Positions 12,581-31,509 are shown, counted from the stretch's first letter. The stretch: 32,000 nt of DNA from Pseudodesulfovibrio mercurii (GCF_000189295.2 NC_016803.1:3810001-3842000), one strand, 5' to 3'. Notes: generated by a model not told the origin, from the letters alone. Numbers and translations are program-made.

Positions 12581-13384
12581 CTATCCTTGGGCTGCCGGTT
12601 GTCCGTCCGGGCCGTGGCCGGGGGTGTCGATGTCGGGTTGGCGGAGAAAGAAGCGCCTGACGAACGGGTTGTCCGAGGTGTCCCGCAGCACGCGCGGGTC
12701 GCCCTCGGCCACGATGGTTTTGACTTCCTTGTCGAGCATGATAACCCGATCCGCTATTTTGTAAATGCTTTCCAATTCATGGGTGACGATGACGAAGGTG
12801 ATGCCCAGGTTCTTGGACAGGTCGAGGATGAGGTCGTCCAGGACCGCGCTGGAGATGGGGTCCAGCCCCGCGCCCGGCTCGTCCAGGAAGAGGATGCCGG
12901 GGTCCAGCGCCATGGCCCTGGCGATGGCCGCCCGCTTCTTCATGCCGCCGGACAGGGCGGCGGGCATCTTGTAGGCCGCGTTCTCCATGTCCACCATGGC
13001 CAGCTTGGACTTGGCGATGAGTTCTATGGCCTCCTGGGGCAGGTCGGTGAACTCCTCCAGCGGCAGCATGACGTTCTGGAGCACGGACATGGACCCGAAC
13101 AGGGCGCCCATCTGGTACATGACCCCGAACTTGCGGATGATCGTCTGGCGCGCCTCGCCCGTGGCCGAGGTCAGGTCGTCGCCGCCGAAGAGGACCCGGC
13201 CCGCCATGGGCTCGATCAGGCCGATCATGTTCTTGAGCAGGGTGGACTTGCCGCAGCCCGAGCCGCCGAGGATGATGAAGACCTCGCCCCGGTTGATGTC
13301 GAAGGTCACGTCGTTGACGATGACCACGCCGTCGTAGCCGCAGGTCAGGTTGCGAACGCTGATGACCGGTGTGTTGTCCGCCAT
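12581..13384 (-). CDS. mlaF: ABC transporter ATP-binding protein, MlaF-like
   Basis: 267 aa. Walker A GGSGCGKST, signature LSGGMKKR, Walker B ILFLDEP. GGAGG SD. Confidence 0.9.
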   Translation of the reverse strand: MADNTPVISVRNLTCGYDGVVIVNDVTFDINRGEVFIILGGSGCGKSTLLKNMIGLIEPMAGRVLFGGDDLTSATGEARQTIIRKFGVMYQMGALFGSMSVLQNVMLPLEEFTDLPQEAIELIAKSKLAMVDMENAAYKMPAALSGGMKKRAAIARAMALDPGILFLDEPGAGLDPISSAVLDDLILDLSKNLGITFVIVTHELESIYKIADRVIMLDKEVKTIVAEGDPRVLRDTSDNPFVRRFFLRQPDIDTPGHGPDGQPAAQG

Positions 13385-13393
13385 GGCCTCCGC

Positions 13394-14539
13394 CTATATC
13401 CCCAAATAATAGTACGCCACGGCGAACAGGCCGTCGGCGAAGGCGATGAGGATGATGCCCGAGACCACGGCGCTGGTGGTGGACAGTCCCACGGCGCTGG
13501 CCCCGGACCGGGTCTGCATGCCGCGCAGGCAGCCCACGCCCGCCACCAGAAAGCTGAAGACCAGCCCCTTGGCCATGCCGCCCCAGAAGTCCGTGGCGCT
13601 GACGTTGGCGAAAACGCGCGAGGTGAAGGTCACCAGGGGGTAGCCCATGGAAAGCATGACCAGGGCTCCGCCCACCAGGCTGGCCAGGTTGAAGAACATG
13701 GTCATCAGCGGGACCATGGCCATGGTCGCCAGGAGCTTGGGAACCACCAGGAAGCGCATGGGGGAAAGGCCCATGGTGGTCAGGGCGTCCAGTTCCTCGT
13801 TGATCTTCATGGTCCCGATCTCGGCGGCGAAGGCCGAACCGGACCGGGCGGCCAGGAGGATGGAGGTGACCAGCGGGCCCATCTCGCGGAACATGACCAG
13901 GCCGAGCATGTTGGGCACGAATATCTCGCCGCCGAACCGCTGCAGGCTGATGGCCGACTGGAAGGACATGATCAGTCCCATGAGGAAGCCGATGAGCACG
14001 ATGATGAACATGGACTCCACGCCCACGTTGATGCAGGCCAGGACCACGTCCTTCCAGCGCACCATGCCCGGATGCACGGCGGCCCGGCCGAGCAGGGAAA
14101 AGGACTCGCCCACAAAGGCGATCATCTCGCGCACGTTGTGCCACAGCTCGCCGCCCGCCGCGCCCACGGCCTCGGCCAGGCCGCGCCGCTCCCGTTCGCT
14201 GTCCCGCTGCTTGGGCAGGGCCGTGTCCCAGGTCAGGTCCACCAGGCGGCTGTCCTCCTCGCGCAGGTTCGTAAGTTCGATGGCGGCCTTTTTCTCGGCG
14301 CACAGCTCCTTGAGCTTGAGCAGCAGGGCCACGCCCGAGCCGTCCATGTAGGTCACGCCCCCGCAGTCGGCGGTCAGCCGGGAGAAGCCGGAACCGGACG
14401 CCCCCTTGACGGCCTCGGCCCAGACGGCGGTGGTGCCCGCCGCGTCCAGGCGGCCCGACAGGGCCAGGACCAGGCCGCCGTCCCTGGGGGAAACGGTGAC
14501 CCGCGCGTCGGTGGGGCTGCGTTTGTTGCTGGTGGCCAT
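13394..14539 (-). CDS. mlaE: MlaE-family ABC permease with N-terminal STAS (MlaB-like) domain
   Basis: The C-terminal ~260 aa are MlaE-like (REMGPLVTSILLAARSGSAFAAEIGTMKINEELDAL). The N-terminal ~110 aa look like STAS/anti-sigma-antagonist (LALSGRLDAAG...VTYMDGSGVALLLKL). Preferred ATG is 14539 (GAGGAA upstream); an alternative ATG is at 14575. Confidence 0.85.
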   Translation of the reverse strand: MATSNKRSPTDARVTVSPRDGGLVLALSGRLDAAGTTAVWAEAVKGASGSGFSRLTADCGGVTYMDGSGVALLLKLKELCAEKKAAIELTNLREEDSRLVDLTWDTALPKQRDSERERRGLAEAVGAAGGELWHNVREMIAFVGESFSLLGRAAVHPGMVRWKDVVLACINVGVESMFIIVLIGFLMGLIMSFQSAISLQRFGGEIFVPNMLGLVMFREMGPLVTSILLAARSGSAFAAEIGTMKINEELDALTTMGLSPMRFLVVPKLLATMAMVPLMTMFFNLASLVGGALVMLSMGYPLVTFTSRVFANVSATDFWGGMAKGLVFSFLVAGVGCLRGMQTRSGASAVGLSTTSAVVSGIILIAFADGLFAVAYYYLGI

Positions 14540-14701
14540 GGGGTGTCGTTCCTCGCGTGATTCCTGGAATGTCATCCGAAGATATCGAATTGTCAGATTA
14601 TCCGAGGAGACGGGAAAAGAAAAGTCGTATGTGCGCGATCGGTCGTCCGGCCGCCCGAAGTCGCTTGACAGGGGGTGAAAAGAATATTATTCCTTTATTC
14701 C

Positions 14702-18235: not shown

Positions 18236-18270
18236 CCCCCCCGTCCGGTTAACCGGGCGGGGGTTTTTTA
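18236..18270 (+). terminator. Rho-independent terminator of putA
   Basis: About 10-bp GC-rich stem (18238-18247 / 18254-18263, one G-U pair) around GTTAAC, followed by T6 (18264-18269). Confidence 0.75.
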
Positions 18271-18276: not shown

Positions 18277-18447
18277 GCCTCCGGGCCTCCAGCCGTTGGC
18301 GGGTCTTGAGCATTACGGATGAGGACAGCAGCGATCGGCTGGGGGAAGGGGGGAAGGGGACCCTTTGAGAAAAGGGTTCCCTTCCCCCCTTCCTCCGGAC
18401 CTCCATCCCCTCATCCTTCCTAAACTTTTTGGCGCCGCTTCGCGGGG
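18277..18447 (-). repeat. Structured dispersed repeat, copy C (reverse orientation, with ~55-nt internal insertion)
   Basis: GCCTCCGG at 18277, extra segment 18285-18339, then GGGGAAGGGGGGAAGGGGACCCTTTGAGAAAAGGGTTCCCTTCCCCCCTTCC hairpin, a C-tract block, TAAACTTTTTGG and CCGCTTCGCGGGG. Confidence 0.85.
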
Positions 18448-18613: not shown

Positions 18614-18635
18614 AAACTGAGTGCATACTCAGTTT
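18614..18635. promoter_or_regulatory. Inverted repeat AAACTGAGT-N4-ACTCAGTTT, candidate operator 1 of the tetR-sulP operon
   Basis: Perfect 9-bp arms. Lies just upstream of the putative -35 element. Confidence 0.5.
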
Positions 18636-18646
18636 GCGGGATTTTT

Positions 18647-18676
18647 TTGACATTGTAGGATTTTACAAAGTATGAG
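18647..18676 (+). promoter_or_regulatory. Candidate sigma70-type promoter of the tetR-sulP operon
   Basis: TTGACA (18647-18652), 18-nt spacer, TATGAG (18671-18676), in an AT-rich stretch. Confidence 0.3.
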
Positions 18677-18681
18677 GGAAA

Positions 18682-18703
18682 AAACTGAGTGAACACTCGG
18701 TAC
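18682..18703. promoter_or_regulatory. Second, imperfect copy of the operator (AAACTGAGT-N4-ACTCGGTAC)
   Basis: The left half-site is identical to operator 1 and the right half matches 6/9. Sits immediately downstream of the putative -10. Confidence 0.4.
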
Positions 18704-18727
18704 GCTTGGGAAAAAAGGATCAAAGGC

Positions 18728-19309
18728 ATGAAGAAGAAGGAGTCCATCCTCAAGGCCGCCACGTTCATGTTCGCGCACAAGGGGTTCGCGGACACGTCCG
18801 GGCAGGAGCTTGCCCGCCTCACCGGGGTGGCCGAGGGGACCATCTTCTATCATTTCAAGACCAAGGAAGGGTTGTTGCTGGCGATCCTGGAGAAGACCAG
18901 GGACGAGATCGTGGACCAGTTTGAGCGGTTCTTTGAGAACAGGCCGTTCAAATCGGGTCTCGAGATGACGGAGGAGGTCATCTCATTCTATCTCTACCTG
19001 GCCGGCTTGATGGAAGACAAGTTCCTGCTGCTGCACCGTCACATTCTCTATCAGTTCTCCGAGTCCAACCCGGAGTTCAGGGAAAACCTCGAGGACATCT
19101 ACAACTGCCTCGTGGACATCTTCGAGAAGGCCATCGTGACGGGGCTGGAGGACGGGTCCATCTGCCAGGAGGTCCATCCCAGGAAATCGGCGCTCATTCT
19201 GTTCACGATGGCTGATGGTCTGGTTCGGTTCAAAAACTACAACCTGTACGATGCCGGCGCGCTGTTCAACGAGTTGATGCGGGCGTGTCGCCGGATGTTG
19301 CAGGCGTAA
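18728..19309 (+). CDS. TetR/AcrR-family transcriptional regulator
   Basis: 193 aa from the ATG at 18728: MKKKESILKAATFMFAHKGFADTSGQELARLTGVAEGTIFYHFKTKEGLL (HTH). A GTG at 18689 is an alternative start. Confidence 0.85.
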   Translation: MKKKESILKAATFMFAHKGFADTSGQELARLTGVAEGTIFYHFKTKEGLLLAILEKTRDEIVDQFERFFENRPFKSGLEMTEEVISFYLYLAGLMEDKFLLLHRHILYQFSESNPEFRENLEDIYNCLVDIFEKAIVTGLEDGSICQEVHPRKSALILFTMADGLVRFKNYNLYDAGALFNELMRACRRMLQA

Positions 19310-19326
19310 TGCAAGGAAGAGGCTGC

Positions 19327-21453
19327 ATGCTTTCACGAATATTCCCTTTCATCGGCTGGTTCAAAGGGTACAACATGGCGGCGCTCCGGGCCGACGCCAT
19401 CGCGGGGCTGACCGTCGCCCTGGTGCTCATCCCCCAATCCATGGCCTATGCCCAGCTGGCTGGCATGCCCGCCTACTACGGCCTGTACGCCTCTTTCCTG
19501 CCGCCCCTGGTGGCGGCCCTGTTCGGCTCCAGCCGCCAGCTGGCCACCGGCCCCGTGGCCGTGGTCTCGCTCATGACCGCGGCCTCGCTCGAACCGCTGG
19601 CCACGGCGGGCAGCGAGGGCTACATCGCCTACGCCATCCTGCTGGCCCTGATGGTCGGCATGTTCCAGTTCCTGCTTGGCGTGCTCAAGCTCGGCCTGGT
19701 GGTCAACTTCCTGTCCCATCCCGTGGTCAACGGCTTCACCAACGCCGCGGCCATAATCATCGCCTCGTCCCAGTTCTCCAAGCTCTTCGGGGTCTACGTG
19801 GACGGCGCGGAGCACCACTATGAGACCATCATCCGCGTGGTCGAGTCCGCCTTCCACTACACCCACTGGCCCACCCTGGGCATGGGCGTGCTCGCCTTCG
19901 GCATCATGGTCGGCCTCAAGCGCGTCAATCCCAAGATTCCCAACGTCCTGGTGGCGGTCGTGGTGACCACGGCCCTGTCCTGGGGGCTGGGCTTCAACCA
20001 CGACGTCAAGGCCTCGGTGGACGCCATCCGCATCCCGGCCGTGCACGAGGCCTTGGTCGGCTTCAACACCACCGTGGCCGCCCTCGACGAGCTGGCCCTG
20101 GAGCGCACCGCCCTGGCCAAGAAGATGGAGGAGGCCAAGGAGTCCGGCGATCCCATTCGGGTCATCGACATCCAGCACGACCAGAACGTGGTCGGCGCCC
20201 GCATGGCCGGTCTCAAGGAAAAGGCCCACGAGCTGCGCACCGAACTGCGCGAGGAGCTCATGACCGGCGTGGAGCAGCCCGACGGCAACCTGATCTTCGT
20301 TCCCCGGGACGCGGTCCCGGACGGCATGACCGCCGACGGCCGGACCTGGCGCATCAAGGTCGGCAACACCAAACTCGACCCGGCCTCCCTGAAGATGATG
20401 GGCGGCGGGGCCGTGGTCGGCGTGGTGCCCTCGGGCATCCCGGCCATCTCCATGCCGTCGCTCGACCTCAAGGTCATGCTCCACCTGATCCCGTTCGCCG
20501 CGATCATCTCCCTGCTCGGTTTCATGGAGGCCATCTCCATCGCCAAGGCCATGGCCGCCAAGACCGGCCAGCGGCTGGACCCCAACCAGGAGCTCATCGG
20601 CCAGGGGCTGGCCAACATGATCGGCGCCTGCGGCAAGAGCTACCCGGCCTCGGGCTCGTTCTCCCGTTCGGCGGTCAACCTTCAGGCGGGCGCGGTCACC
20701 GGCATGTCCTCGGTGTTCACCTCGCTCATGGTCGTCATCGCGCTGCTCTTCTTCACTCCGCTGCTCTATCACCTGCCCCAGGCCGTGCTGGCCGCGGTCA
20801 TCATGATGGCCGTCATCGGGCTGATCAACGCCTCGGGCTTCATCCACGCCTGGAAGGCCCAGTGGTACGACGGGGCCATCTCCATCCTGTCCTTCCTGTG
20901 CACCCTGGCCTTCGCCCCGCACCTGGACAAGGGCATCATGGTCGGCGTGGTCCTGTCGCTCCTGGTCTTCCTGTACAAGTCCATGCGGCCGCGCGTGGCC
21001 AACCTGTCCCGCAGCGAGGACGAGTCCCTGCGCGACGCCACGGCCTTCGGCCTGAAGCAGTGCCAGCACATCTCCCTGGTCCGCTTCGACGGTCCGCTGT
21101 TCTTCGCCAACGCGAGCTTCCTGGAGGACCAGATCACCGAGCGGCTCATGGGCAACGACAAGCTCAGGCACATCATTATCGTGGCCAACGGCATCAACGA
21201 CATGGACGCCTCGGGTGAGGAAGCCCTGTCGCTGATCGTCGACCGCGTCCGCTCCCGTGGGCTGGACATCTCCCTGTGCGGGGTGAACGAGGCGGTCATG
21301 GCCGTGCTCGAGCGCACCCACCTGCTGGAGAAGATCGGCAAGGACCACGTGTACGCGACCATGGAGAGCGCCATCTGCGCCACGCACGAGAGTGCGCACC
21401 GCGACGGCAACGAAGACAGCTGTCCCCTCACCACCGTTTGCCGCCTGGCCTAA
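19327..21453 (+). CDS. SulP/SLC26-family anion transporter with C-terminal STAS domain and a ~138-aa internal insertion
   Basis: 708 aa from the ATG at 19327 (AAGGAAGAGG upstream). Motifs DAIAGLTVALVLIPQSMAYAQLAG and PSGIPAISMP. STAS region ISLVRFDGPLFFANASFL. Confidence 0.9.
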   Translation: MLSRIFPFIGWFKGYNMAALRADAIAGLTVALVLIPQSMAYAQLAGMPAYYGLYASFLPPLVAALFGSSRQLATGPVAVVSLMTAASLEPLATAGSEGYIAYAILLALMVGMFQFLLGVLKLGLVVNFLSHPVVNGFTNAAAIIIASSQFSKLFGVYVDGAEHHYETIIRVVESAFHYTHWPTLGMGVLAFGIMVGLKRVNPKIPNVLVAVVVTTALSWGLGFNHDVKASVDAIRIPAVHEALVGFNTTVAALDELALERTALAKKMEEAKESGDPIRVIDIQHDQNVVGARMAGLKEKAHELRTELREELMTGVEQPDGNLIFVPRDAVPDGMTADGRTWRIKVGNTKLDPASLKMMGGGAVVGVVPSGIPAISMPSLDLKVMLHLIPFAAIISLLGFMEAISIAKAMAAKTGQRLDPNQELIGQGLANMIGACGKSYPASGSFSRSAVNLQAGAVTGMSSVFTSLMVVIALLFFTPLLYHLPQAVLAAVIMMAVIGLINASGFIHAWKAQWYDGAISILSFLCTLAFAPHLDKGIMVGVVLSLLVFLYKSMRPRVANLSRSEDESLRDATAFGLKQCQHISLVRFDGPLFFANASFLEDQITERLMGNDKLRHIIIVANGINDMDASGEEALSLIVDRVRSRGLDISLCGVNEAVMAVLERTHLLEKIGKDHVYATMESAICATHESAHRDGNEDSCPLTTVCRLA

Positions 21454-21473
21454 GGCGCTAATAGGGAGTCAAT

Positions 21474-22691
21474 ATGTCAGTTATTACCGTTTTCAACGGA
21501 TTGTTTTGCGAAGCCGGTGTGGTGGTCAAGCGCGTCGTGGACGCCACGGGCTGCCGCCTGATCACGGACCAGGAGATCGTGGCCGACGCCGCGCGCCTGT
21601 CCGGCATGGCTGAGGACCGCATCGCCCGGGCCTTCCAGGCCAAGGCCTCGGTCTTCAACACCTTCAGCCACGAAAAGGAGCAGGCCATCGCCTGGATGCG
21701 TCTGGCCGTGGCCAAGCGGCTGGTCGAGGACGAGGCCATGGTCATTCCCGGCTTCGCCTCCCAGCTGCCCGATCCGAACATCGGCCACATCCTCAAGGTC
21801 TGCCTGATCTCCGACAAGAAGGCGCGGGTGGCCGTGGCCGAGCGTGAGGAGGGCTTCGCCGAGAAGCACGCCATGAAGCTCATCCGCAAGGACGACGAGG
21901 ATCGCGCCGCCTGGGTCAAGGCCCTGCGCGACGTGGACGATCCGTGGTCCGGCACCCTCTACGACCTGGTCCTGCCCGTGGCCTCCACCGGCGTGGACCG
22001 CTGCGCGGACCTCATCGTCGAGCAGCTCTCCAACGCCGCGGTCCAGGTCACCGACCGGACCCGCGCGGCCGTGCAGGACTTCCTCCTGGCCGCCCGCGTG
22101 GAGACCGTGCTGGCCAAGGAGGGCCACAGCGTCCAGGTCTCGGCCCACAAGGGCACCGTCACCCTGACCATCAACAAGCACGTGCTCCTGCTGGAGAAGC
22201 TGGAGCGCGAACTGAAGTCCATCGTCGCCGACGTGGACGGGGTCATGGCCGTGGAGGCCCAGGTGGGCAAGGGATTCCACCAGACCGACATCTACCGCAA
22301 GATGGACTTCGAGGTGCCCTCCAAGGTCCTGCTCGTGGACGACGAGCGCGAATTCGTCCAGACCCTGTCCGAACGGCTGATGATGCGTGACATGGGTTCG
22401 GCCGTGGTTTACGATGGGGAGTCCGCCCTGGATCTGGTGCGCGAAGACGAGCCCGAGGTCATGATCCTCGACCTGAAGATGCCCGGCATCGATGGCATCG
22501 AGGTTCTGCGCCGGGTCAAGAGCGAGCACCCGAACATCGAGGTCATCATCCTGACCGGCCACGGTTCGGAGGCGGACCGCCAGGTGTGCATGGAGCTGGG
22601 CGCCTTCGCCTACCTGCACAAGCCCGTGGACATCGACGTCCTGAGCGAGACGCTCAAGGCCGCCAACGACAAGATCAGAGCCGAAAAGTAA
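21474..22691 (+). CDS. Response-regulator receiver protein with N-terminal cytidylate-kinase-like (degenerate P-loop) and BON-like domains
   Basis: 405 aa. The C-terminal REC reads KVLLVDDE...VMILDLKMPGIDG...ILTGHG...YLHKP. Residues ~1-185 resemble the Cytidylate_kin2 family but carry NGLFCEAG where GxxGxGK is expected. Residues ~200-265 are BON-like (VETVLAKEGHSVQVSAHKGTVTLT...VDGVMAVEAQV). GGGAG SD. Confidence 0.8.
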   Translation: MSVITVFNGLFCEAGVVVKRVVDATGCRLITDQEIVADAARLSGMAEDRIARAFQAKASVFNTFSHEKEQAIAWMRLAVAKRLVEDEAMVIPGFASQLPDPNIGHILKVCLISDKKARVAVAEREEGFAEKHAMKLIRKDDEDRAAWVKALRDVDDPWSGTLYDLVLPVASTGVDRCADLIVEQLSNAAVQVTDRTRAAVQDFLLAARVETVLAKEGHSVQVSAHKGTVTLTINKHVLLLEKLERELKSIVADVDGVMAVEAQVGKGFHQTDIYRKMDFEVPSKVLLVDDEREFVQTLSERLMMRDMGSAVVYDGESALDLVREDEPEVMILDLKMPGIDGIEVLRRVKSEHPNIEVIILTGHGSEADRQVCMELGAFAYLHKPVDIDVLSETLKAANDKIRAEK

Positions 22692-22712
22692 CGGCGGGAG
22701 CCGGGTGGCGTC

Positions 22713-24458
22713 ATGGCAGCACTGTTCGAAAAGATACGGCCCAAATTCTGGGACACGGAAGATGGCGGCGGAGCGGGCAAGAACCTGTTCAACTACCGGC
22801 GCATCTGGCGTTTCGCCATCGTCCTGCTGGCGCTGGTGGCCCTGATCCCCCTGATGGTCATGGCCTTCATCGACTACAACGTCACCCGGCATTCCCTGGA
22901 ATCCGAGAACCTGTTGCGCACGGCCCGGACCACTTCCAACACCCGGCGGTCCGTGGCCTACTTCCTGGAGGAGCGGGCCAAGGCCCTGGAGTTCCTGGCC
23001 CTGGATCGTGGCGTGGGCGCCCTGCGCAGCCGCGAGAACCTGGCCGCGGTCCTGGCCTCCCTGCAACAGAGCTTCGGCGGGTTCGTGGACCTGGGCGTGA
23101 TCAACGACCAGGGGCGGCAGATCGCCTACGTCGGCCCCTACGACCTGCTCGGCCGCGACTACAGCGGCCAGGAGGGGTTCTCCACGACCATGGAGCACGG
23201 CACCTACATCAGCCGGGTCTTCCTCGGCTTCCGCGACGAGCCGCACCTGGTGGTCTCGCGCAAGGTGCACGACGGTCCGTCCGGCGAGGACTTCATCCTG
23301 CGGGCCACGCTGGACACGGACCAGTTCAACTCCATCCTTCAGCTCGACCTGCCCGGCGGCGGCGACGCCTTCGTGGTGGACCGGGAGGGCATCATCCAGA
23401 CCCCGTCCAGGGAGCACGGCGCGCTGCTGACCAAGGTGGACCTGGCCATCCCCGGTTATTCCGAGACGACCAGCGTGGAGCAGGTCCGGGGCGGGGACGG
23501 GCTGGAGTACTCCGTGGGCTTCGCCTACATCCACGACACGCCGTTCGTCGTCCTGGTGGTCAAGCGCACCAAGGAACTGATGAAGCCGTTGCAGACCATC
23601 CGCATGGAACTGCTCTGGATACTCATCTCGAGCATCCTGATCATCCTGCTGGTCATCGTGGGCGTGGCCACCTACCTGGTCAACAAGGTCTACATCGCGG
23701 ACCAGACCAGGGCGCGGACCCTGCACCGCATGGAGCACACCAACCGCATGGCCTCCATCGGACGGCTGGCGGCGGGCGTGGCCCACGAGATCAACAACCC
23801 CCTGGCCATCATCAACGAGAAGGCCGGACTGGTCCGCGACCTGTTCATCTACAAGCAGGAGTACGCCCACGACGAGCGGCTGCTGCGGAACATCGACTCC
23901 ATCCTCAACTCCGTGGCCCGGTGCGGCAAGATCACCAAGCGGCTTCTCAGCTTCGCCCGGCACATCGACGTGGAGATGGACGAGATCGAGTTCAAGGACC
24001 TGGCCAACGAGGTCATCGACTTCCTGCGCAAGGAGGCCGAGTACCGGTCCATCGCCATCGAGATGGACATCCCCGAGAACCTGCCCCCGTTCATCTCGGA
24101 CCGGGGCAAGCTGCAACAGATCTTCCTCAACCTGGTGAACAACGCCTTCCAGGCCATGAACGACGGCGGACACCTGTCCATCTCGGCCAGGGAGACGGCC
24201 TGCGACCACCTGGTCTTCGCCGTGACCGACGACGGCTGCGGCATCCCGGAGGCGGATATCAAGCGCATCTTCGACCCGTTCTTCTCGACCAAGAAGAAGA
24301 CCGGCGGCACCGGGCTCGGCCTGTCCATCACCTACGGCCTGGTCCAGGAACTCGGCGGGACCATGGCCGTGGAGAGCGAGGTGGGCAAGGGGACGACCTT
24401 CACCATAACCATGCCCCTCAAGGGGACCAAGCCCGAATGCAAGACGGACAAGGCATAG
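22713..24458 (+). CDS. Sensor histidine kinase with two TM segments flanking a Cache-like periplasmic domain
   Basis: 581 aa. TM at ~25-45 and ~300-325. H-box AAGVAHEINNPL, N-box NLVNNAFQA, G1 DDGCGI, G2 GTGLGL. Confidence 0.9.
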   Translation: MAALFEKIRPKFWDTEDGGGAGKNLFNYRRIWRFAIVLLALVALIPLMVMAFIDYNVTRHSLESENLLRTARTTSNTRRSVAYFLEERAKALEFLALDRGVGALRSRENLAAVLASLQQSFGGFVDLGVINDQGRQIAYVGPYDLLGRDYSGQEGFSTTMEHGTYISRVFLGFRDEPHLVVSRKVHDGPSGEDFILRATLDTDQFNSILQLDLPGGGDAFVVDREGIIQTPSREHGALLTKVDLAIPGYSETTSVEQVRGGDGLEYSVGFAYIHDTPFVVLVVKRTKELMKPLQTIRMELLWILISSILIILLVIVGVATYLVNKVYIADQTRARTLHRMEHTNRMASIGRLAAGVAHEINNPLAIINEKAGLVRDLFIYKQEYAHDERLLRNIDSILNSVARCGKITKRLLSFARHIDVEMDEIEFKDLANEVIDFLRKEAEYRSIAIEMDIPENLPPFISDRGKLQQIFLNLVNNAFQAMNDGGHLSISARETACDHLVFAVTDDGCGIPEADIKRIFDPFFSTKKKTGGTGLGLSITYGLVQELGGTMAVESEVGKGTTFTITMPLKGTKPECKTDKA

Positions 24459-24459
24459 C

Positions 24460-24810
24460 ATGAAAGTACTGTTGGTAGACGACGAAGTGGAACTGGTTTC
24501 CGCCATGGCCGAGCGCCTCGGGTTCCGGGACGTGGACGCGGACTGGACGGACAACGGCGAGTCGGCCCTGGAAATGGCCGACAAGACCGCCTACGACGTG
24601 GCCGTCCTGGACATGAAGATGCCCAAGCTGAGCGGCCTGGAGCTCATGGAGCGGCTGGCGGAACGGCACCCGGACATGAAGTTCATCTTCCTGTCCGGCC
24701 ATGGCTCGGAATCGGATTTCAAGGCGGGCTGCGCCGCGGGCTGCAACTATCTGATCAAGCCCATCCAGCTCGAGGAACTGGTCGCCCTGATCCGCAAGGT
24801 GGCGGCGTAA
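24460..24810 (+). CDS. Single-domain response regulator (CheY-like)
   Basis: 116 aa: MKVLLVDDE...VAVLDMKMPKLSG...FLSGHG...YLIKP. The start is 1 nt after the HK stop. Confidence 0.9.
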   Translation: MKVLLVDDEVELVSAMAERLGFRDVDADWTDNGESALEMADKTAYDVAVLDMKMPKLSGLELMERLAERHPDMKFIFLSGHGSESDFKAGCAAGCNYLIKPIQLEELVALIRKVAA

Positions 24811-24826
24811 CGACAAAGGAGAGGGC

Positions 24827-25477
24827 ATGAGCCGGACCCAGTGCGAGCCCCGCGAGGGACTCAGATTTTTCGGGCGCATCAGCGCCTCCGTGTCCCATGA
24901 GATCAAGAACGTGTTCGCCGTGATCAACGAGGCGGCCGGGCTGATCGAGGACTTCACGCTCATGGCCGAGCGCGGAATGCCCATCCAGCCGGAGCGGCTC
25001 AAGGGCGCGGCCAAGACCATCCAGGGCCAGATCCGGCGCGGCGACGGCATCGTCAGGAACATGAACGCCTTCGCCCATTCCACCGACGAGGACATCCGCG
25101 AGGTGAACCTGGTCGAGGCCCTGAAACTGGCGGCGGACCTGACCTCCCGGTTCGCCGACATGCGGCAGATCAAGCTGACCGTGGGCGAGAGCAAGCCCGT
25201 GTCCATGGTCGCGTGCCCCTTTGATCTGACGCGGCTGCTGCACTCCTCCATGGTGGCGGCCTTCGATTCCATGCGGCCGGGCGACACGCTGGTCATCACC
25301 GTGTCCCCCGCAGACGGCGGCGCATCGTTCTCCCTTTCCGTGCCCGGAAAGGATGCCCCGCTCAAGAATGACGAACCGTTCGCCGACCAGGCAAGGGCCC
25401 TGAACGCCCGGGTCGAGGTGGACGAAAAGACCGGGACGAGCCAGTTGCTGCTTGCGGCCGCGGGCGCACCCGCGTAG
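24827..25477 (+). CDS. Soluble histidine-kinase-like protein with H-box but degenerate ATP-binding domain
   Basis: 216 aa. SASVSHEIKNVFAVINEAAGLIEDF is paralogous to the DHp of the upstream HK. The N-box position reads SSMVAAF (no Asn), and the G1 (DxGxG) and G2 (GxGLGL) boxes are not recognisable. Confidence 0.7.
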   Translation: MSRTQCEPREGLRFFGRISASVSHEIKNVFAVINEAAGLIEDFTLMAERGMPIQPERLKGAAKTIQGQIRRGDGIVRNMNAFAHSTDEDIREVNLVEALKLAADLTSRFADMRQIKLTVGESKPVSMVACPFDLTRLLHSSMVAAFDSMRPGDTLVITVSPADGGASFSLSVPGKDAPLKNDEPFADQARALNARVEVDEKTGTSQLLLAAAGAPA

Positions 25478-25509
25478 AACAACATTCATACCTGATCGGA
25501 GAAGAGAAC

Positions 25510-25938
25510 ATGGCAGAAAAAGTACTGCTTATTGACGATGAAGTGGAATTCCTCGAGGCCCTGTCCGAACGGATGGAGATCCGGGGCATGGATGTGACCA
25601 CGGCCGAGAACGCCAACGCCGCGGTCAGCGCGATCAATTCGGGCGACTACGACGCCATCGTGCTGGACCTGCAGATGCCGGACATGAACGGCATCGACAT
25701 GCTCAAGGTCATCCGCAAGACCAATCCGGACATGCAGGTCATCCTGCTGACCGGCCAGGCCACCCTGGAGGCCGGCATCCAGGCCATGAAGCTCGGGGCC
25801 ATGGACTTCATGGAGAAGCCCGCGGACATCGACGCGCTGACCGACAAGATCAAGAAGGCCCAGGCCAAGAAGATGGTCATCGTGGAGAAGAAGACCGAGA
25901 AGAAGGTCAACGAAATCCTCAAGTCCAAGGGGTGGTAG
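25510..25938 (+). CDS. Single-domain response regulator with short Lys-rich C-terminal tail
   Basis: 142 aa: KVLLIDDE...AIVLDLQMPDMNG...LLTGQA...FMEKP, then KKAQAKKMVIVEKKTEKKVNEILKSKGW. Confidence 0.9.
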   Translation: MAEKVLLIDDEVEFLEALSERMEIRGMDVTTAENANAAVSAINSGDYDAIVLDLQMPDMNGIDMLKVIRKTNPDMQVILLTGQATLEAGIQAMKLGAMDFMEKPADIDALTDKIKKAQAKKMVIVEKKTEKKVNEILKSKGW

Positions 25939-25957
25939 ACCCCGCTGTCGACAACGG

Positions 25958-25993
25958 AAAAAAGGCTGCCGGGACGATCCCGGCAGCCTTTTT
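25958..25993. terminator. Bidirectional Rho-independent terminator between the signalling operon and the GNAT gene
   Basis: A6, then an 11-bp perfect stem GGCTGCCGGGA (25964-25974) / TCCCGGCAGCC (25978-25988), then T5. Lies between convergent genes. Confidence 0.85.
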
Positions 25994-26011: not shown

Positions 26012-26509
26012 TCAGTCCGCCAGGATCAGGGTCATGGCGTGCCAGGGCACGCCGCCGTGGGTGGACCGGGACAGGCCGTCGTCGGTGAAGCCGAAACGGG
26101 TGTAGAAGGAGGTCAGCGGCTCCTTGCACAACAGCTTGATCGCGGACTTGCCCATGTCCCGGGCATGCTCGATGAAGTTCGCAAGCAGCTTGCCCGCGAT
26201 GCCGCGCTTCTGGAAATCGGGGTGCACGGACAGGGAGAAGATGACGATGTTGCGGCCGTCCGGGTCGTGGCCGATGAGCTGCTTGAACTCCTCGTCCGTG
26301 ATGTCGTCCTTGTCGGTGGAGCCCGCGTTCACCTGGCCGACCACCCGGCCTTCCAGCTCGGCCACCAGAAATCCCTCGGGATAGATTTCGATGCGGTTGC
26401 GCAGGCTGCTCGCCCAGGCGGCCTCGGCGGGCGGAAAGCAGTTGGCCTCGATGGTGTGGCAGGCGGGCAGGTCGTCCATGTCCGCGTGGCGTATGGTCAG
26501 GGCTTTCAT
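26012..26509 (-). CDS. GNAT-family N-acetyltransferase
   Basis: 165 aa. Acetyl-CoA binding-type segment VHPDFQKRGIAGKLL. The start is 2 nt after the uup stop. Confidence 0.85.
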   Translation of the reverse strand: MKALTIRHADMDDLPACHTIEANCFPPAEAAWASSLRNRIEIYPEGFLVAELEGRVVGQVNAGSTDKDDITDEEFKQLIGHDPDGRNIVIFSLSVHPDFQKRGIAGKLLANFIEHARDMGKSAIKLLCKEPLTSFYTRFGFTDDGLSRSTHGGVPWHAMTLILAD

Positions 26510-29228: not shown

Positions 29229-29555
29229 TCAGGGCTGGTCGGTGATCAGCCGCTCGGACGCGTAGCCGAGCAGCCCGCCGAGGACCAGGTTGATGCCCAC
29301 CACCTGGAGCACGCCCAGGGGAGCGTCGGGGTGGAGCAGGATGCCCAGGGGCAGGGCGGTCAGCACGGCGATGAGCATGCCCGTGGCCCAGCTCTCCAGC
29401 GGCATGCGGGCGAAGGCGATGATGATGCTCAACCCCAGCCAGTGGAGCAGGATCGCGGCCACGGCCTGCAACGGGACGTCCAGGAAGACCATGGGGATGG
29501 CGTTCAGGATGCCCGCGGCCAGCCCGAGCAGCAGAATCTTGTACATCTTGTGCAT
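29229..29555 (-). CDS. Small integral membrane protein (108 aa, ~4 TM segments), function unknown
   Basis: The ATG at 29555 is preceded by AGGGAG and starts 13 nt after the ahbA stop. Strongly hydrophobic segments. No family recognised. Confidence 0.55.
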   Translation of the reverse strand: MHKMYKILLLGLAAGILNAIPMVFLDVPLQAVAAILLHWLGLSIIIAFARMPLESWATGMLIAVLTALPLGILLHPDAPLGVLQVVGINLVLGGLLGYASERLITDQP

Positions 29556-29568
29556 GGGCCCGGTCTCC

Positions 29569-30018
29569 CTACTTGTCCATCTTGAAATCGACCTTGATCT
29601 TGAACAGCTTGTACGCCGGGAGGTTGAGCACCTTGATGCCCGTGGCCTCGGTGATGGAGGCCAGGATTTCCTCCACCGCGTCCATGTCCGGGGCGATGAG
29701 CGCGAACCAGACGTTGAAATCATTCTCGCGCAGGTAGTTGTGCGTCACGCCGTCGTGCCGGTTGACCTCGGCCACGAACGCGTCCAGACGGTCCTCGGGC
29801 ACCGAGGCCGCGCACAGGGTGGACTGCCAGCCCAGGGTGTTGGAGTTGAAGTTCGCCCCCATGCGCCGGATCAGCCCGGACGCCTTCATGGCCCGAACGC
29901 GATCGAGCACCTCGGCCTCGGTCAAACCCACCCGCTCGCCGACCTCCGCATACGGACGGGACGCCAACGGGAAATGGGACTGGATGATGTCGAGTATCTG
30001 CTTGTCGTAATTGTCCAT
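29569..30018 (-). CDS. ahbA: Siroheme decarboxylase subunit (AhbA/AhbB, NirD/L/G/H-like AsnC-type fold)
   Basis: 149 aa: MDNYDKQILDIIQSHFPLASRPYAEVGERVGLTEAEVLDRVRAMKASGLIRR..., then a GVTHNYLR-type C-terminal half. ahbA is chosen over ahbB from my recollection of the Desulfovibrio vulgaris order ahbA-ahbD-hemB-ahbC. Confidence 0.7.
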   Translation of the reverse strand: MDNYDKQILDIIQSHFPLASRPYAEVGERVGLTEAEVLDRVRAMKASGLIRRMGANFNSNTLGWQSTLCAASVPEDRLDAFVAEVNRHDGVTHNYLRENDFNVWFALIAPDMDAVEEILASITEATGIKVLNLPAYKLFKIKVDFKMDK

Positions 30019-30025
30019 GAAGCAT

Positions 30026-30115
30026 GCCTCCGGCGGCCAGGGGGGAAACCCTTTGAAAAGGGTTGTCCCCCCTGGACCCCCCTTCCTAAACTTTTTTTAT
30101 CGCGCCTTCGGCGGG
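30026..30115 (-). repeat. Structured dispersed repeat, copy E1 (reverse orientation, short form)
   Basis: GCCTCCGGCGGCCAGGGGGGAAACCCTTTGAAAAGGGTTGTCCCCCCTGGACCCCCCTTCCTAAACTTTTTTTATCGCGCCTTCGGCGGG. Confidence 0.85.
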
Positions 30116-30193
30116 TGCGTCGGCGCGCGATACATTTTCCTTCAATTACCGTCCCCCGGTCAAGCGGCACATCCTCCCGTCATCCCCCTACCT

Positions 30194-30308
30194 CCGCGAA
30201 GCGGCGTAAAAAGTTTAGGAGGGGAGAGGGGATGGGGGTCCGGGGGAAGGGGAGAGGGAAACCCTTTTCAAAGGGTTCCCCTCTCCCCTTCCCCCGGCCG
30301 CCGGAGGC
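30194..30308 (+). repeat. Structured dispersed repeat, copy E2 (forward orientation); forms an inverted pair with E1
   Basis: CCGCGAAGCGGCGTAAAAAGTTTAGGAGGGGAGAGGGGATGGGGGTCC, then a 24/25-bp hairpin (30242-30266 / 30271-30295, loop TTCA), then GGCCGCCGGAGGC. Ends 1 nt from the ahbD stop. Confidence 0.9.
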
Positions 30309-30309
30309 G

Positions 30310-31509
30310 TCACGCCTTCGGCTTTTTCTTCGGGGTGTAGGAGCACAAAGGCTCCTCTTTCAAATAGTGGCCGTTCATGGTCTGGGCGCGGGCGCGGCAG
30401 CCGCCGCAGACCTTTTCGTATTCGCAGTAGCCGCACTTGCCGTCGTAGACCTCGGGGTTGCGCAGGTTGAGGAACTGCGGGGATTTTTTCCAGATATCCG
30501 GGAAGGGAATCTCGCGCACGTTGCCGCAGTTGAGGTCCAGGTAGCCGCACGGCTGGACCTGGCCCCGGTGGGAGATGAAGCAGAAGCCGATGCCGCCGAG
30601 GCAGCCGCGCGAAACCGCGTCCAGGCCGAAGTTCTCGAAGTTGACCGGGACGCCCTCCTCCTTGGCCCGCTGGCGCAGGATGCGGTGGTAGTGGGGCGCG
30701 CAGGTGGCCTTGAGCTGCATGCTGGTGGTCTTGCGGAAGTCGTAGAACCAGTTGAGCACGTCCTCGTACTCCTCGGCGGAGATGATCTCGGTGCCCAGCT
30801 CCACGGCCCGGCCCGTGGGCACGAGCAGGAAGATGTGCCAGGCGGACGCGCCGATATCCTCGCAGAGGTGGAAGATGTCCTTGAACAGGTGGAGGTTGTT
30901 CTTGGTCACCGTGGTGTTGATCTGGAACTCGATGCCCACGTCCTTGAGGTACTGGATGCCGCGCATGGAGGCGGCGAAGGCCCCGACCTCGCCCCGGAAC
31001 TCATCGTGCTGGGCGGCCTCGGGGGCGTCGATGGAGATGGAGCAGCGCTCGACCCCGGCGTCCTTCATCTTTTGGGCGGTCTCCGGGGTGATCAGCGTGC
31101 CGTTGGGGGCCATGACGCAGCGCATGCCCTTGTCCTTGGCGTAGGCGATCAGCTCGTAGACGTCGTGCCGCATCATGGGCTCGCCGCCGGTGAAGATGAT
31201 GATCGGGGAGCCCACGTCCGGGAAGGTGTCGATGAGGGCCTTGGCCTCGGCCGTGGACAGCTCGCCCTCGTAGGGCTCGGGGTGCGCCTCGGCCCGGCAG
31301 TGCTTGCAGGCCAGGTTGCAGGATCGGGTCACTTCCCAGGCGATGAGGCGGCAGATGGGCGTGACGCCGTCGTCCAGGTACTTCTTGGGCGCGTGTTCGG
31401 CGCCGGGGTGCGTGTTGCCGTGGGGGTGGCCGCCGGGGTGCCCGCCGGGATGGCCCTCGGGCGGACAGCCGGTCATGGGGTGGCCGGGATGATTCTGGTG
31501 TTCGCTCAT
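30310..31509 (-). CDS. ahbD: Radical SAM/SPASM enzyme of the AhbC/AhbD (NirJ-like) family, probably heme synthase AhbD, with His-rich N-terminal extension
   Basis: 399 aa. CNLACKHC radical-SAM motif. C-terminal Cys cluster CGYLDLNC...KCGYCEYEKVCGGCRARA. Flanked by hemB and ahbA. ahbD versus ahbC is decided only by remembered synteny. Confidence 0.7.
   Translation of the reverse strand: MSEHQNHPGHPMTGCPPEGHPGGHPGGHPHGNTHPGAEHAPKKYLDDGVTPICRLIAWEVTRSCNLACKHCRAEAHPEPYEGELSTAEAKALIDTFPDVGSPIIIFTGGEPMMRHDVYELIAYAKDKGMRCVMAPNGTLITPETAQKMKDAGVERCSISIDAPEAAQHDEFRGEVGAFAASMRGIQYLKDVGIEFQINTTVTKNNLHLFKDIFHLCEDIGASAWHIFLLVPTGRAVELGTEIISAEEYEDVLNWFYDFRKTTSMQLKATCAPHYHRILRQRAKEEGVPVNFENFGLDAVSRGCLGGIGFCFISHRGQVQPCGYLDLNCGNVREIPFPDIWKKSPQFLNLRNPEVYDGKCGYCEYEKVCGGCRARAQTMNGHYLKEEPLCSYTPKKKPKA

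Follow-up and report, generated by a model that had tools for sequence, protein, structure and literature searches.

Seven ORFs, all on the plus strand, occupy positions 18614-25993 of the window (the whole 32,000-nucleotide stretch of Pseudodesulfovibrio mercurii DNA that was analysed). Their order is tetR, sulP-STAS, CK-like/BON-like/REC, dCache kinase, REC, DHp-only "kinase", and REC, and the Pfam domains found in them are, in turn, TetR_N; Sulfate_transp and STAS; Cytidylate_kin2 and Response_reg; dCache_1, HisKA, and HATPase_c; Response_reg; HisKA alone, as a weak match of 20 bits that misses the cutoff; and Response_reg. The genes and flanking features are as follows (coordinates, strand, description, with the evidence in parentheses):

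18614-18637, plus strand, operator O1, a perfect palindrome, AAACTGAGTgcaTACTCAGTTT, equal to AAACTGAGT-gca-TACTCAGTTT, directly 5′ of the -35 hexamer
18647-18676, plus strand, candidate sigma-70-like promoter, TTGACA (18647-18652)-N18-TATGAG (18671-18676) (read from sequence)
18682-18701, plus strand, operator O2, an imperfect copy, AAACTGAGTgaaCACTCGGT, directly 3′ of the -10 hexamer
18728-19309, plus strand, tetR, TetR-family repressor, 193 aa (Pfam TetR_N, PF00440, E 1.3e-13)
19327-21453, plus strand, sulP, SLC26/SulP permease with a C-terminal STAS domain, 708 aa (Pfam, TIGR00815)
21474-22691, plus strand, gene 3, CK-like, BON-like, and REC response regulator (Pfam, AF2)
22713-24458, plus strand, gene 4, membrane sensor histidine kinase (HK) (Pfam, hydropathy, orthologue conservation)
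24460-24810, plus strand, gene 5, single-domain receiver REC2, 116 aa (Pfam, E 4e-24)
24827-25477, plus strand, gene 6, DHp hairpin and truncated CA-like alpha/beta domain (AF2, Foldseek, conservation)
25510-25938, plus strand, gene 7, single-domain receiver REC3, NtrC/FixJ type, 142 aa (Pfam, E 4e-29)
25959-25993, no strand assigned, intrinsic terminator hairpin with a 16-bp stem (A-run before, T-run after)
26012-26509, minus strand, convergent GNAT gene sharing the terminator hairpin

Given the likeliest start codons (ATG 18728 for tetR and ATG 19327 for sulP), the intergenic gaps measure 18, 20, 21, 1, 16, and 32 nt, the start codon of gene 5 lying 1 nt past the HK stop codon. At an alternative sulP start, ATG 19309, the start codon and the stop codon of tetR overlap (TAATG); the mechanical tetR ORF begins at GTG 18689, within O2, and we prefer ATG 18728. 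An earlier note on this DNA had claimed seven genes on one strand with gaps of 1-32 nt, bounded by an operator-bearing promoter and a bidirectional terminator. The ORFs, Pfam domains, and gaps agree with this description, and both the palindromes and the hairpin with its 16-bp stem are present. The seven genes probably form one transcript. The reading frames of HK, REC2, and gene 6 overlap or abut (REC2 overlapping its neighbours in several relatives), which suggests translational coupling.

The two operators bracket the TTGACA-N18-TATGAG promoter candidate, for which a consensus promoter scan made no call because the -10 hexamer ends in G. An ACTGAG-N(2-6)-CTCAGT palindrome precedes tetR in the majority of 61 related loci and is conserved across orders; palindromes paired at a spacing of ~68 nt also occur in other Pseudodesulfovibrio and Desulfovibrionaceae loci. 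The same palindrome, given as ~16 bp 5′ of tetR, has already been reported (PMC11887813). With an N-terminal HTH and a palindrome in its own promoter, the first gene is predicted to encode an autoregulated repressor of the TetR family.

The arrangement is not peculiar to this genome. A six-gene core occurs in the same order in 38 of the 44 species-level genomes with adequate flank, 37 of them also with tetR (which is present in 37 of the 38 complete Desulfobacterota clusters but missing from the clusters of LCP-89, Acidobacteriota, and Syntrophales). The same seven genes are found in Desulfonema magnum (L081) and Maridesulfovibrio (L001). The flanks are unrelated, no flanking gene being common to more than 10 loci, and even at 25% identity the core is still present (L092). 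Further copies come from candidate division LCP-89, from Acidobacteriota, where dsrAB is adjacent, and from Syntrophales, where qmoC is; dsrA (584 bits) and dsrB (506 bits) adjoin the core in locus L094, and qmoC (484 bits) does so in L095. A gene of the DASS sulfate-symporter family (Na_sulph_symp) is often adjacent to the module or inserted in it. The same order in 38 of 44 genomes and in other phyla places the arrangement far beyond chance, and the refuting condition set in the earlier note, a linkage not conserved outside this genome, does not hold. The same note had seen in SulP and its STAS domain the sole plausible partner encoded in cis. The transporter is indeed the constant partner of the signalling genes across phyla and down to 25% identity, but the window holds a second STAS domain.

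SulP scores 433.6 bits against TIGR00815 (cutoff 380.45), which places it in the SLC26/SulP family, and matches Pfam Sulfate_transp (PF00916, E 9e-101) and STAS (PF01740, E 4e-17). Three parts of the protein can be marked on the DNA:

19996-20412, plus strand, soluble SulP insertion, ~140 aa, between TM7 and a pre-TM8 segment (Pfam and PDB alignments split there)
21058-21372, plus strand, STAS domain of SulP (Pfam STAS, residues 592-696 of the 722-aa ORF)
21397-21441, plus strand, SulP C-terminal tail motif after STAS, H-x7-C-P-L-x3-C (alignment of 50 orthologues)

The insertion is without a hydrophobic segment (maximum KD19 0.93) and is kept in all orthologues, its sequence being poorly conserved; by analogy with SLC26 topology it would be periplasmic, and it matches the "group Ci" of Marietou 2018. 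In the STAS domain, the position of the SpoIIAA-type phospho-Ser reads as Ala (DASG). Elsewhere in the same window, a STAS-MlaE fusion gene lies at 13394-14575.

The nearest solved structure to SulP is AtSULTR4;1 (7LHV, E 1.4e-94), a far stronger match than BicA or SLC26Dg (1e-23). In a phmmer alignment to 7LHV, AtSULTR4;1 residues Q112, Y116, S390-F-S-R393, and the proton-coupling E347, whose substrate and proton roles are taken from PMC8298490, are all identical in SulP. The fold, the STAS domain, and the site residues are thus common to SulP and the AtSULTR4;1/SLC26 H+/sulfate symporters; unlike AtSULTR4;1, SulP has the ~140-aa soluble TM7-TM8 insertion and the H-x7-CPL-x3-C tail, and its transport activity is predicted. 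The apparent counterpart in Desulfobacterium autotrophicum, HRM2_40360 (by locus-tag numbering), is highly expressed at high sulfate, and proteome as well as transcript data for apparent orthologues, likewise assigned by locus tag, also favour a sulfate permease. Taken with the dsrAB, qmoC, and DASS neighbours, these data favour the earlier suggestion that the permease could import sulfate, and we infer that SulP is a proton-coupled, SULTR-like permease with sulfate as its probable substrate. It is unlikely that the substrate is instead another anion such as bicarbonate, thiosulfate, sulfite, selenate, or molybdate, with the module controlling that anion. The authors of the SULTR4;1 structure caution that binding-site residues do not prove SLC26 substrate selectivity (PMC8298490), so that substrate choice is not readable from them, and the first P of the PXYGLY motif is A in SulP. 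Moreover, in a few loci (one group) a beta-carbonic anhydrase gene lies directly 3′ of the module, which makes bicarbonate a possible substrate. Set against these points are the superior match to SULTR4;1, the dsrAB, qmoC, and Na_sulph_symp neighbours, the expression of HRM2_40360, which rises at high sulfate, and the fact that sulfate reducers make up almost all the lineages named as carriers among the loci scanned.

The third gene combines a cytidylate-kinase-like region (aa 3-167), a BON-like region (aa ~194-264), and a receiver (aa 285-394), in an AF2 model with pLDDT 84.6. Its orthologues are 57-95% identical, and its family comprises 440 50%-identity clusters at E<=1e-10, mostly of ~405 aa; among solved structures, the uncharacterised 3FDI is nearest. 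The first region matches PF13189 with 56.5 bits (threshold 28). The Walker A P-loop GxxxxGK[ST] was not found in gene 3, the loop after strand 1 reading NGLFCEAGVV and the family consensus at this position being F-[SN]-G-x-[FY]-C, without Lys-Ser/Thr. We therefore rejected assignment as a cytidylate kinase enzyme and describe the region as a CK-like fold, not a demonstrated kinase. As to the BON domain of the earlier note, the middle region scores 15.1-18.1 bits against Pfam BON, below the gathering score of 27, but its AF2 topology is alpha-beta-beta-alpha-beta (H194-215, E221-225, E228-233, H240-251, E259-264), 16 of 36 relatives do match Pfam BON (best E 2e-5), and its top PDB profile match is OsmY (E 0.016). 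A 1032-aa protein, P0265, fuses gene 3 to gene 4, which supports a shared network of the encoded proteins, although the fusion could be a sequencing or gene-calling artefact.

Gene 4 has the architecture TM1, periplasmic dCache_1 (aa 69-282), TM2, HisKA, and HATPase_c. It is a HisKA-type kinase by its matches to PF00512 and PF02518 (E 3e-30), its H-box (AHEINNPL), and its N, G1, and G2 boxes (LNLVNNA, DDGCGI, and GGTGLGLS). Sulfate binding is not known for dCache_1 domains, which counts against sulfate sensing by this kinase. All three receivers, in genes 3, 5, and 7, carry the DD pocket, Asp, Thr/Ser, and Lys in a three-way alignment (in REC2, the acidic pocket DD, D51, S79, and K100), with PF00072 E values from 3e-28 to 4e-24. 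The C-terminal helix of REC3 is conserved and ends in K-G-W, even in the distant L092. In Pfam searches of genes 3, 5, and 7 we found no HTH, sigma-54 AAA+, GGDEF, EAL, HD-GYP, or CheB output, and among orthologues with Pfam calls no DNA-binding or enzymatic output domain appears in any lineage examined, in agreement with the earlier description of receivers without DNA-binding output. Since no receiver binds DNA, the output would be protein-protein.

This bears directly on the published account of such loci. A SulP-type sulfate transporter gene cluster of Desulfobacteraceae has already been described (Sci Adv 2025, PMC11887813). It is reported there as widespread in Desulfobacteraceae and also present in Dv. 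salexigens, and comprises a TetR gene with a palindromic operator, SulP, a cache kinase, and two-component genes; the P. mercurii locus has the same content and belongs to this cluster. Orthologous clusters are present in Desulfobacteraceae genomes and in Maridesulfovibrio, the carriers Desulfonema magnum and Maridesulfovibrio named above being relatives of the organisms in that paper. Its authors speculate that the cluster kinase senses sulfate, and in the main text treat the regulators as WalR-type or PhoRB-like, that is, transcriptional, whereas the receivers here are without a DNA-binding domain. On the model put forward there, the cache kinase senses external sulfate and, by way of response regulators, sets synthesis of SulP and DASS in a PhoRB-like manner, TetR being a second, intracellular level of control. 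It has in its favour that it is a published proposal, that the TetR operator is real and conserved, and that the sensory domains of DASS-cluster and SulP-cluster kinases are reported to be similar (PMC11887813). We nevertheless regard it as very unlikely, given the lack of a DNA-binding domain in the three receivers of any lineage examined and the description, in the same source, of SulP as an abundant, constitutively formed protein; with such receivers, a transcriptional output needs cross-talk to a regulator elsewhere or action on TetR. What goes beyond the sections of PMC11887813 considered here is the DHp-only protein, the CK-like/BON-like/REC architecture, the shared docking code, and the spread to other phyla, beside dsr and qmo genes. 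The earlier note's failure to match the arrangement to any characterised system accordingly holds for its biochemistry but not for the cluster, the TetR operator, or the sulfate-sensing model, all published in 2025 (PMC11887813). The P. mercurii locus is a copy of a deeply conserved SRB operon that had been described before but is uncharacterised.

The DHp-only protein encoded by gene 6 is modelled by AF2 (pLDDT 90.6) as a pair of helices (8-48 and 55-85) with an alpha/beta domain after them, and the top Foldseek matches of the model are HK DHp-CA cores: HK853, ZraS, KinB, DivL, and RetS. Its best PDB sequence matches are ZraS and KinB, and among its partners the neighbouring HK, of which it is a close paralogue, scores best (E 5e-12). 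His24 (codon 24896-24898, motif SHEIKN) is invariant in 47 of 47 gene 6 relatives and present in at least 95% of 50 orthologues. Gene 6 has no HATPase_c match and no DxGxG or GxGxG motif, and at the N-box position it has LHSSMVAAF; conservation is poor across its C-terminal half, and the lid is shortened. Lacking the N, G1, and G2 boxes, gene 6 was rejected as an active histidine kinase. The earlier reading as a degenerate pseudo-kinase nevertheless understates the protein, whose H-box His is invariant and whose DHp is HK-like. Neither the ChpT nor the Spo0B family model matches gene 6, Pfam and NCBIfam returning weak HisKA/HK hits only; what it has in common with ChpT and Spo0B is a DHp hairpin with a conserved His and a CA-like domain without ATP-binding boxes. 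Because the invariant His is kept while the ATP boxes are missing, a phosphotransferase resembling ChpT and Spo0B, or else a dedicated phosphatase, is the better reading of gene 6, and by analogy it may work like ChpT or Spo0B though not a member of either family.

DHp helix 1 is near-identical in HK (AHEINNPLAIINEKAGL) and gene 6 (SHEIKNxLAIINENAGL), and the three receivers share DDExE[FL]xxx[LM][SA]ER[LM]. That the two DHp helices and the three receivers have one docking code in common implies that the network is closed. The candidate phosphotransferase role of gene 6 rests on these residues and on the HK-REC-DHp*-REC gene order; a phosphatase fits equally well, and the HExxN motif is compatible with both functions.

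Relays of the His-Asp-His-Asp type are known from Spo0 (KinA-Spo0F-Spo0B-Spo0A) and CckA-ChpT-CtrA/CpdR, each with a single-domain receiver as intermediate. The second His of these relays is carried on a DHp-like dimer whose CA-like domain is unable to bind ATP; ChpT feeds two receivers, one of which, CpdR, is a single-domain protein with a non-transcriptional output. The relay that we propose would be alike in its DHp-like second His and its single-domain receiver intermediate, and unlike in that gene 6 is a paralogue of its own HK, no terminal receiver binds DNA, and a transporter is encoded alongside. The earlier note had implied a branched phosphorelay or phosphate sink; the HK-REC-DHp*-REC order agrees no less well with a His-Asp-His-Asp relay than with a sink. 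A branched one-step system with such a sink is possible, if rather doubtful: HK would phosphorylate all three receivers, one or two of which drain phosphate, and gene 6 would be a kinase-dead phosphatase or an HK-inhibiting heterodimer partner, as RetS is for GacS. The receivers share their helix-1 docking residues and the DHp helices are near-identical, so that HK could dock all three; gene 6 retains HExxN and counts the pseudo-kinases DivL and RetS among its Foldseek matches; and the L087/L088 variant has no REC2 between HK and gene 6, so that a strict four-step relay there would need the divergently encoded receiver of those loci. However, a purely structural inhibitor does not need a His that is invariant across phyla, HK itself has HExxN and should already be a phosphatase, which makes a separate one redundant, and the gene order with its translational coupling mirrors the Spo0 and ChpT relays.

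Our preferred reading, to which we give about even chances, is a sulfate-uptake module typical of sulfate reducers, made up of a TetR-controlled operon, SulP, and a closed phosphotransfer network. The TetR repressor would bind the two palindromic operators around the promoter and control the seven-gene transcript. SulP would act as a proton-coupled sulfate permease with an extra periplasmic domain, and the other five proteins as one closed phosphotransfer network. The dCache kinase would autophosphorylate on sensing a signal in the periplasm, which may be sulfate or the transporter's state; the phosphoryl group would then pass to REC2, from REC2 to His24 of the ATP-blind gene 6 protein, and from there to the terminal receivers REC3 and/or CK-like/BON-like/REC. 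Most likely the output would tune how active the permease is, and likewise any linked DASS symporter. That this control is post-translational and acts through STAS is pure inference.

The reverse direction of signalling is improbable as the whole explanation: SulP would be a co-sensor whose insertion or STAS domain reports flux to the dCache kinase, as in DctA-DcuS, and the receivers would act on distant targets (metabolism, motility, or proteolysis adaptors). Both SulP and HK have periplasmic domains, the module is without a recognisable effector enzyme, and the single-domain receivers CpdR and DivK do act on remote protein targets. The transporter is, on the other hand, the only non-signalling gene always found with the network, and DASS genes have been recruited in some lineages; gene association fits transporters as targets at least equally, and the two roles are compatible.

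Other known systems resemble parts of the proposed uptake module. In Myxococcus xanthus, the single operon of the "four-component" system RedCDEF encodes a kinase, a kinase-like protein, and output-less receivers, which signal purely by phosphotransfer and protein contacts. Compared by description, RedCDEF is alike in this set of components and unlike in having no transporter and no CK-like/BON receiver, and in serving developmental timing. In DctA-DcuS, BceAB-BceS, and Pst-PhoU-PhoR, a transporter and a kinase are coupled both genetically and functionally to control uptake of the solute transported; these systems end in a DNA-binding response regulator, whereas the module here is without one.

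A more specific form of the proposal is tentative and, we think, rather unlikely as a whole. It would make the module a non-transcriptional His-Asp-His-Asp relay starting from the first known sulfate-sensing HK, in which the CK-like/BON-like/REC protein and the KGW-tailed REC3 gate SLC26/DASS permeases at the membrane for rapid control of uptake, the six-gene cassette having been inherited or exchanged among sulfate reducers of several phyla. If true, the module would provide sulfate respiration with the rapid control over sulfate uptake that has long been sought.

We found on the + strand of the window all seven open reading frames that the earlier note had claimed, and ORF calls, Pfam, and NCBIfam confirm them. 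Pseudodesulfovibrio mercurii is the former Desulfovibrio sp. ND132; gene 6 is DND132_3448, and gene 3 has 100% identity to a P. mercurii protein. The elements of the operon are as follows:

18614-18637: operator O1, a perfect 9+9 palindrome upstream of tetR
18682-18701: operator O2, an imperfect palindrome copy, 68 nt after O1
tetR, + strand: product with TetR_N (Pfam)
sulP, + strand: product with Sulfate_transp and STAS (Pfam); TIGR00815 at 433.6 bits, exceeding the cutoff (NCBIfam)
gene 3, + strand: product with Cytidylate_kin2 and Response_reg (Pfam)
gene 4, + strand: product with dCache_1, HisKA, and HATPase_c (Pfam)
gene 5 (REC2), + strand: product with Response_reg (Pfam)
gene 6, + strand: product with HisKA alone, sub-threshold (Pfam)
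gene 7 (REC3), + strand: product with Response_reg (Pfam)
25959-25993: terminator hairpin with a 16-bp stem, common to the operon and a convergent GNAT gene

With the best-supported start codons, the intergenic gaps are 18, 20, 21, 1, 16, and 32 nt; an alternative ATG of sulP overlaps the tetR stop codon. O1 and O2 bracket the candidate -35/-10 hexamers TTGACA-N18-TATGAG, and this predicted placement would be compatible with repression by TetR. The pattern ACTGAG-N(2-6)-CTCAGT recurs ∼35-55 nt 5′ of tetR in most related loci, in two copies in Desulfovibrionaceae. The stretch from the putA terminator (18238-18263) to the operon promoter also contains a long G/A-rich inverted repeat (18341-18396; 26-nt arms, 92% complementary, 4-nt loop), which may serve as an insulator or represent a REP-like element; at least one further locus (L057) has C/G-rich hairpins akin to it 5′ of tetR. 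A scan of the whole window at Rfam gathering thresholds gave no matches.

Elsewhere in the window, futalosine-pathway menaquinone genes (3765-8505) comprise two VitK2_biosynth and two radical-SAM CofH/MqnC-like genes, near which lie a LysR regulator, a second TetR regulator, and an EamA exporter. Pfam gave no match at E ≤ 1e-5 for two long ORFs (609-2363, - strand, 584 aa; 29290-31527, + strand, 745 aa). Because a radical-SAM/SPASM gene overlaps the second ORF on the opposite strand in GC-rich DNA, this ORF is probably no real gene.

The cluster is strongly conserved. The best 80 loci fetched via relatives of gene 3, one per species-level genome, come from Desulfovibrionales, Desulfobacterales (Desulfonema, Desulfobacter, Desulfatirhabdium, and Desulfamplus), and Desulfatiglandales. 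By tblastn with the seven window proteins, gene content and order are conserved in these loci on every contig of sufficient length. Under strict positional criteria, the six-gene core (sulP to REC3) is present in 38 of their 44 adequately flanked members, and 37 of those 38 also carry tetR. The genes are nevertheless present in several of the six exceptions: REC3 lies further downstream in three, and a fourth has a low-identity match to REC2. In one locus (L043, 14272-16835), a gene for a transporter of the Na_sulph_symp family (DASS) is inserted between the DHp-only gene (gene 6) and two tandem single-domain receivers. When a conserved eighth gene was sought in ∼70 loci, no flanking family occurred in more than 10. 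The flanking genes are unrelated among loci, and the conserved unit therefore consists of these genes and nothing else.

The core extends well beyond the close relatives. In the neighborhood comparison, distant members carry sulP, gene 3, the dCache kinase, a receiver, a DHp-only gene of ∼225 aa, and a second receiver. The core is complete in L092 (25% identity) and is present in L087 (42% identity), with REC2 absent from its usual position. It is also found in the LCP-89 candidate division (L093), an Acidobacteriota MAG (L094), and a Syntrophales MAG (L095). Conservation of the linkage outside this genome, a check proposed in the earlier note, holds both in the adequately flanked loci and in distant phyla. 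tetR is found in only some of the Desulfobacterota versions examined, and L095 lacks it. The metagenome contigs L087 and L088 share a variant cluster in which no REC2 separates the kinase gene from the DHp-only gene, and 5′ of tetR they encode a divergently transcribed 165-aa receiver and a 435-aa protein without a Pfam match; in the variant kinase, the N and G2 boxes seem partly degenerate. The cluster appears to be absent from D. vulgaris Hildenborough and D. alaskensis G20, models with fitness data, because Dv. salexigens is the only one of the compared Desulfovibrio species that PMC11887813 names.

Several neighbors of the core are linked to sulfate respiration. In the Acidobacteriota MAG, the core adjoins dsrA (TIGR02064, 584 bits), dsrB (506 bits), and a cobB/dsrN-like amidase gene, and a DASS transporter with a TrkA_C domain is encoded after gene 6. 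In the Syntrophales MAG, the core is preceded by qmoC (484 bits) and an HdrA/QmoB-like gene and followed by genes for a CBS protein and a DASS transporter. A DASS gene is also found downstream in several Desulfobacterales loci. In one Deltaproteobacteria MAG group (L003, L004, L005, and L017), the gene immediately downstream of the module, ∼250 nt from REC3, encodes a beta-carbonic anhydrase (Pro_CA), which may hint at coupling to bicarbonate or pH; in L003-L005 it is followed by a diacylglycerol-kinase-like gene and an OmpR-type two-component pair.

The closest solved structure to the window SulP is the H+/sulfate symporter AtSULTR4;1 (E 1.4e-94), whereas BicA and SLC26Dg reach only ∼1e-23. 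The window protein shares with AtSULTR4;1 Q112, Y116, S390-F391-S392-R393, and the proton-coupling E347; conserved site residues are insufficient to define selectivity, according to the authors of that structure (PMC8298490). Within the classification of Marietou et al., it is a member of the long 'group Ci'. TM7 and the pre-TM8 segment are separated by an insertion of ∼140 aa (19996-20412), present in every orthologue and weakly conserved except for an R-x-W-R...G patch and a GGG-VVG-P-G-P junction. Hydropathy analysis found no hydrophobic stretch in this insertion and so does not support, for this protein, the extra transmembrane helix described by Marietou 2018. By SLC26 topology the soluble insertion would be periplasmic, and the naming of the TM5-6 loop as extracellular in the SULTR4;1 paper supports the periplasmic placement. 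After the STAS domain, the C-terminal tail (21397-21441) carries H-x7-CPL-x3-C. The His and CPL are found in nearly all 50 orthologues and the second Cys in most, and even the distant L092 has CPL; the tail resembles a metal, redox, or sulfide-sensitive motif. The membrane proteome of D. autotrophicum contains SulP HRM2_40360, whose expression is high at 15 mM sulfate. The locus tags there run from HRM2_40310 (receiver) to HRM2_40360 (SulP3), adjoining the DASS gene HRM2_40290, and judging from this numbering the run would match the seven-gene layout. A second STAS domain in the window belongs to an Mla-like ABC system (11426-14575, - strand; MlaD, ABC ATPase, and MlaE), in which MlaE has an N-terminal STAS domain as a fused MlaB-like module.

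By Pfam and hydropathy, gene 4 encodes a membrane kinase of orthodox type whose periplasmic domain is dCache_1. In a three-way alignment, genes 5 and 7 and the C terminus of gene 3 are complete receivers, with every catalytic residue present. In the AF2 model of gene 6 (pLDDT 90.6), a shortened CA-like alpha/beta domain comes after a DHp hairpin, and the Foldseek matches of the model are the DHp-CA cores of HK853, ZraS, KinB, DivL, and RetS. His24, in the motif SHEIKN, and ∼25 further DHp residues are invariant; conservation is poor in the C-terminal half, where the N, G1, and G2 boxes are missing. The earlier note had called this protein degenerate HK-like and a pseudo-kinase: The ATP boxes are indeed absent, but with His24 invariant it is not a dead relic. 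Lacking ATP-binding boxes and keeping its histidine, it would be unable to autophosphorylate and may retain phosphotransfer or phosphatase chemistry.

Gene 6 is most closely related to the neighboring kinase, gene 4 (E 5e-12). DHp helix 1 is almost the same in the two, AHEINNPLAIINEKAGL in gene 4 and SHEIKNxLAIINENAGL in gene 6, and is almost invariant in all lineages. The three receivers in turn have a common helix-1 docking pattern, DDExE[FL]xxx[LM][SA]ER[LM]. With the docking helices near-invariant across lineages, covariation has no signal for DHp-REC partners, although such constancy is itself informative; these shared motifs lead us to read the five signaling proteins as one putative insulated network. 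Frequent frame overlaps among gene 4, REC2, and gene 6 suggest translational coupling. The gene order of kinase, receiver, ATP-blind DHp protein, and receiver can be read, by analogy, as a Spo0- or ChpT-type relay layout, and the His-bearing but ATP-blind gene 6 points to a multi-step relay. A possible alternative is a phosphatase or sink instead of a relay. At the C terminus of REC3 (25840-25938) there is a conserved lysine-rich helix with K-G-W at its extreme end, kept from Desulfovibrionales to L092 and replaced by another tail in a minority of lineages; it may be a docking peptide.

Gene 3 has a CK-like fold without Walker A, with the family motif F-[SN]-G-x-[FY]-C; the nearest solved structure to this part is the uncharacterized 3FDI. 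The middle of the protein is a BON-like alpha-beta-beta-alpha-beta domain, sub-threshold in Pfam but with consistent support, and the receiver is very strongly conserved. An exact-sequence look-up of gene 3 gave no match, and a fold search with its model returned receiver domains only and was uninformative on the CK-like and BON-like parts. The weak PDB match of the CK-like C terminus to adenylyl-sulfate kinase (E 1.2) is nonsignificant and lends no support to binding of APS. PADLOC likewise gave only receiver-level matches, and a link of the cluster to defense systems was set aside.

A search of the representative library with the CK-like/BON-like part recovered 440 clusters at 50% identity (E ≤ 1e-10), mostly of ∼405 aa. 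One member (P0265, 1032 aa) joins CK-like and REC parts to dCache, HisKA, and HATPase_c, as a fusion of gene 3 with gene 4. Either this is a Rosetta-stone fusion, or a stop codon was lost or the assembly is at fault; if no artifact, the protein supports a direct partnership of the two proteins. Five relatives (P0244, P0245, P0250, P0254, and P0258; 496-513 aa) are longer, with an additional ∼100 residues that separate the BON-like part from the receiver. The single genomic context seen for these, a 4-kb contig (L089), has no adjacent sulP, so the family is not invariably transporter-linked.

For Desulfobacteraceae, PMC11887813 (Science Advances, 2025) describes a 'SulP-type sulfate transporter gene cluster' that includes a TetR repressor besides two-component genes. 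According to that paper, it is widespread in the family and also present in Dv. salexigens, it has a conserved 16-bp palindrome, and its SulP is abundant and constitutively formed; the cache kinase is proposed as a sensor of external sulfate, and the regulators are termed WalR-type. We found no relevant literature on DND132_3443-3449, cytidylate kinase-like response regulators, or a SulP phosphorelay, and the Desulfovibrio nitrate-resistance and RB-TnSeq papers do not cover this cluster. The earlier note could match the arrangement to no characterized system; it is uncharacterized, although the cluster type has been described. Its claim that the receivers have no DNA-binding output holds, and a PhoRB-like transcriptional circuit therefore cannot be encoded in cis. 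To the accessible text of PMC11887813 we add that the receivers lack DNA binding, that gene 6 is a His-bearing, ATP-blind DHp protein, that there is a single shared docking code, that the CK-like/BON-like/REC proteins are a large uncharacterized family, and that the six-gene core spans phyla and adjoins dsr, qmo, and DASS genes.

The most likely function of the cluster is control of sulfate import in sulfate respiration through a private, nontranscriptional phosphotransfer network. The interpretation of the earlier note is supported in part: The linkage is conserved, and the order of phosphotransfer, the signal, and the target are what we infer.

Sulfate uptake is the first, rate-setting step of dissimilatory sulfate reduction. 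To our knowledge, the sulfate transporters of sulfate reducers are predicted only, and no bacterial sulfate sensor is known. Apart from its transporter and repressor, the cassette consists of phosphotransfer proteins only; this content, and its travel with dsr, qmo, and DASS genes across phyla, make it a concrete, tractable candidate for sulfate sensing and the tuning of import. Two uncharacterized protein types are of wider interest, the CK-like/BON-like/REC regulators and the kinase-derived DHp-only partner. P. mercurii ND132 is a study organism for mercury methylation and is reportedly genetically tractable, so the predictions for the cluster are testable there.
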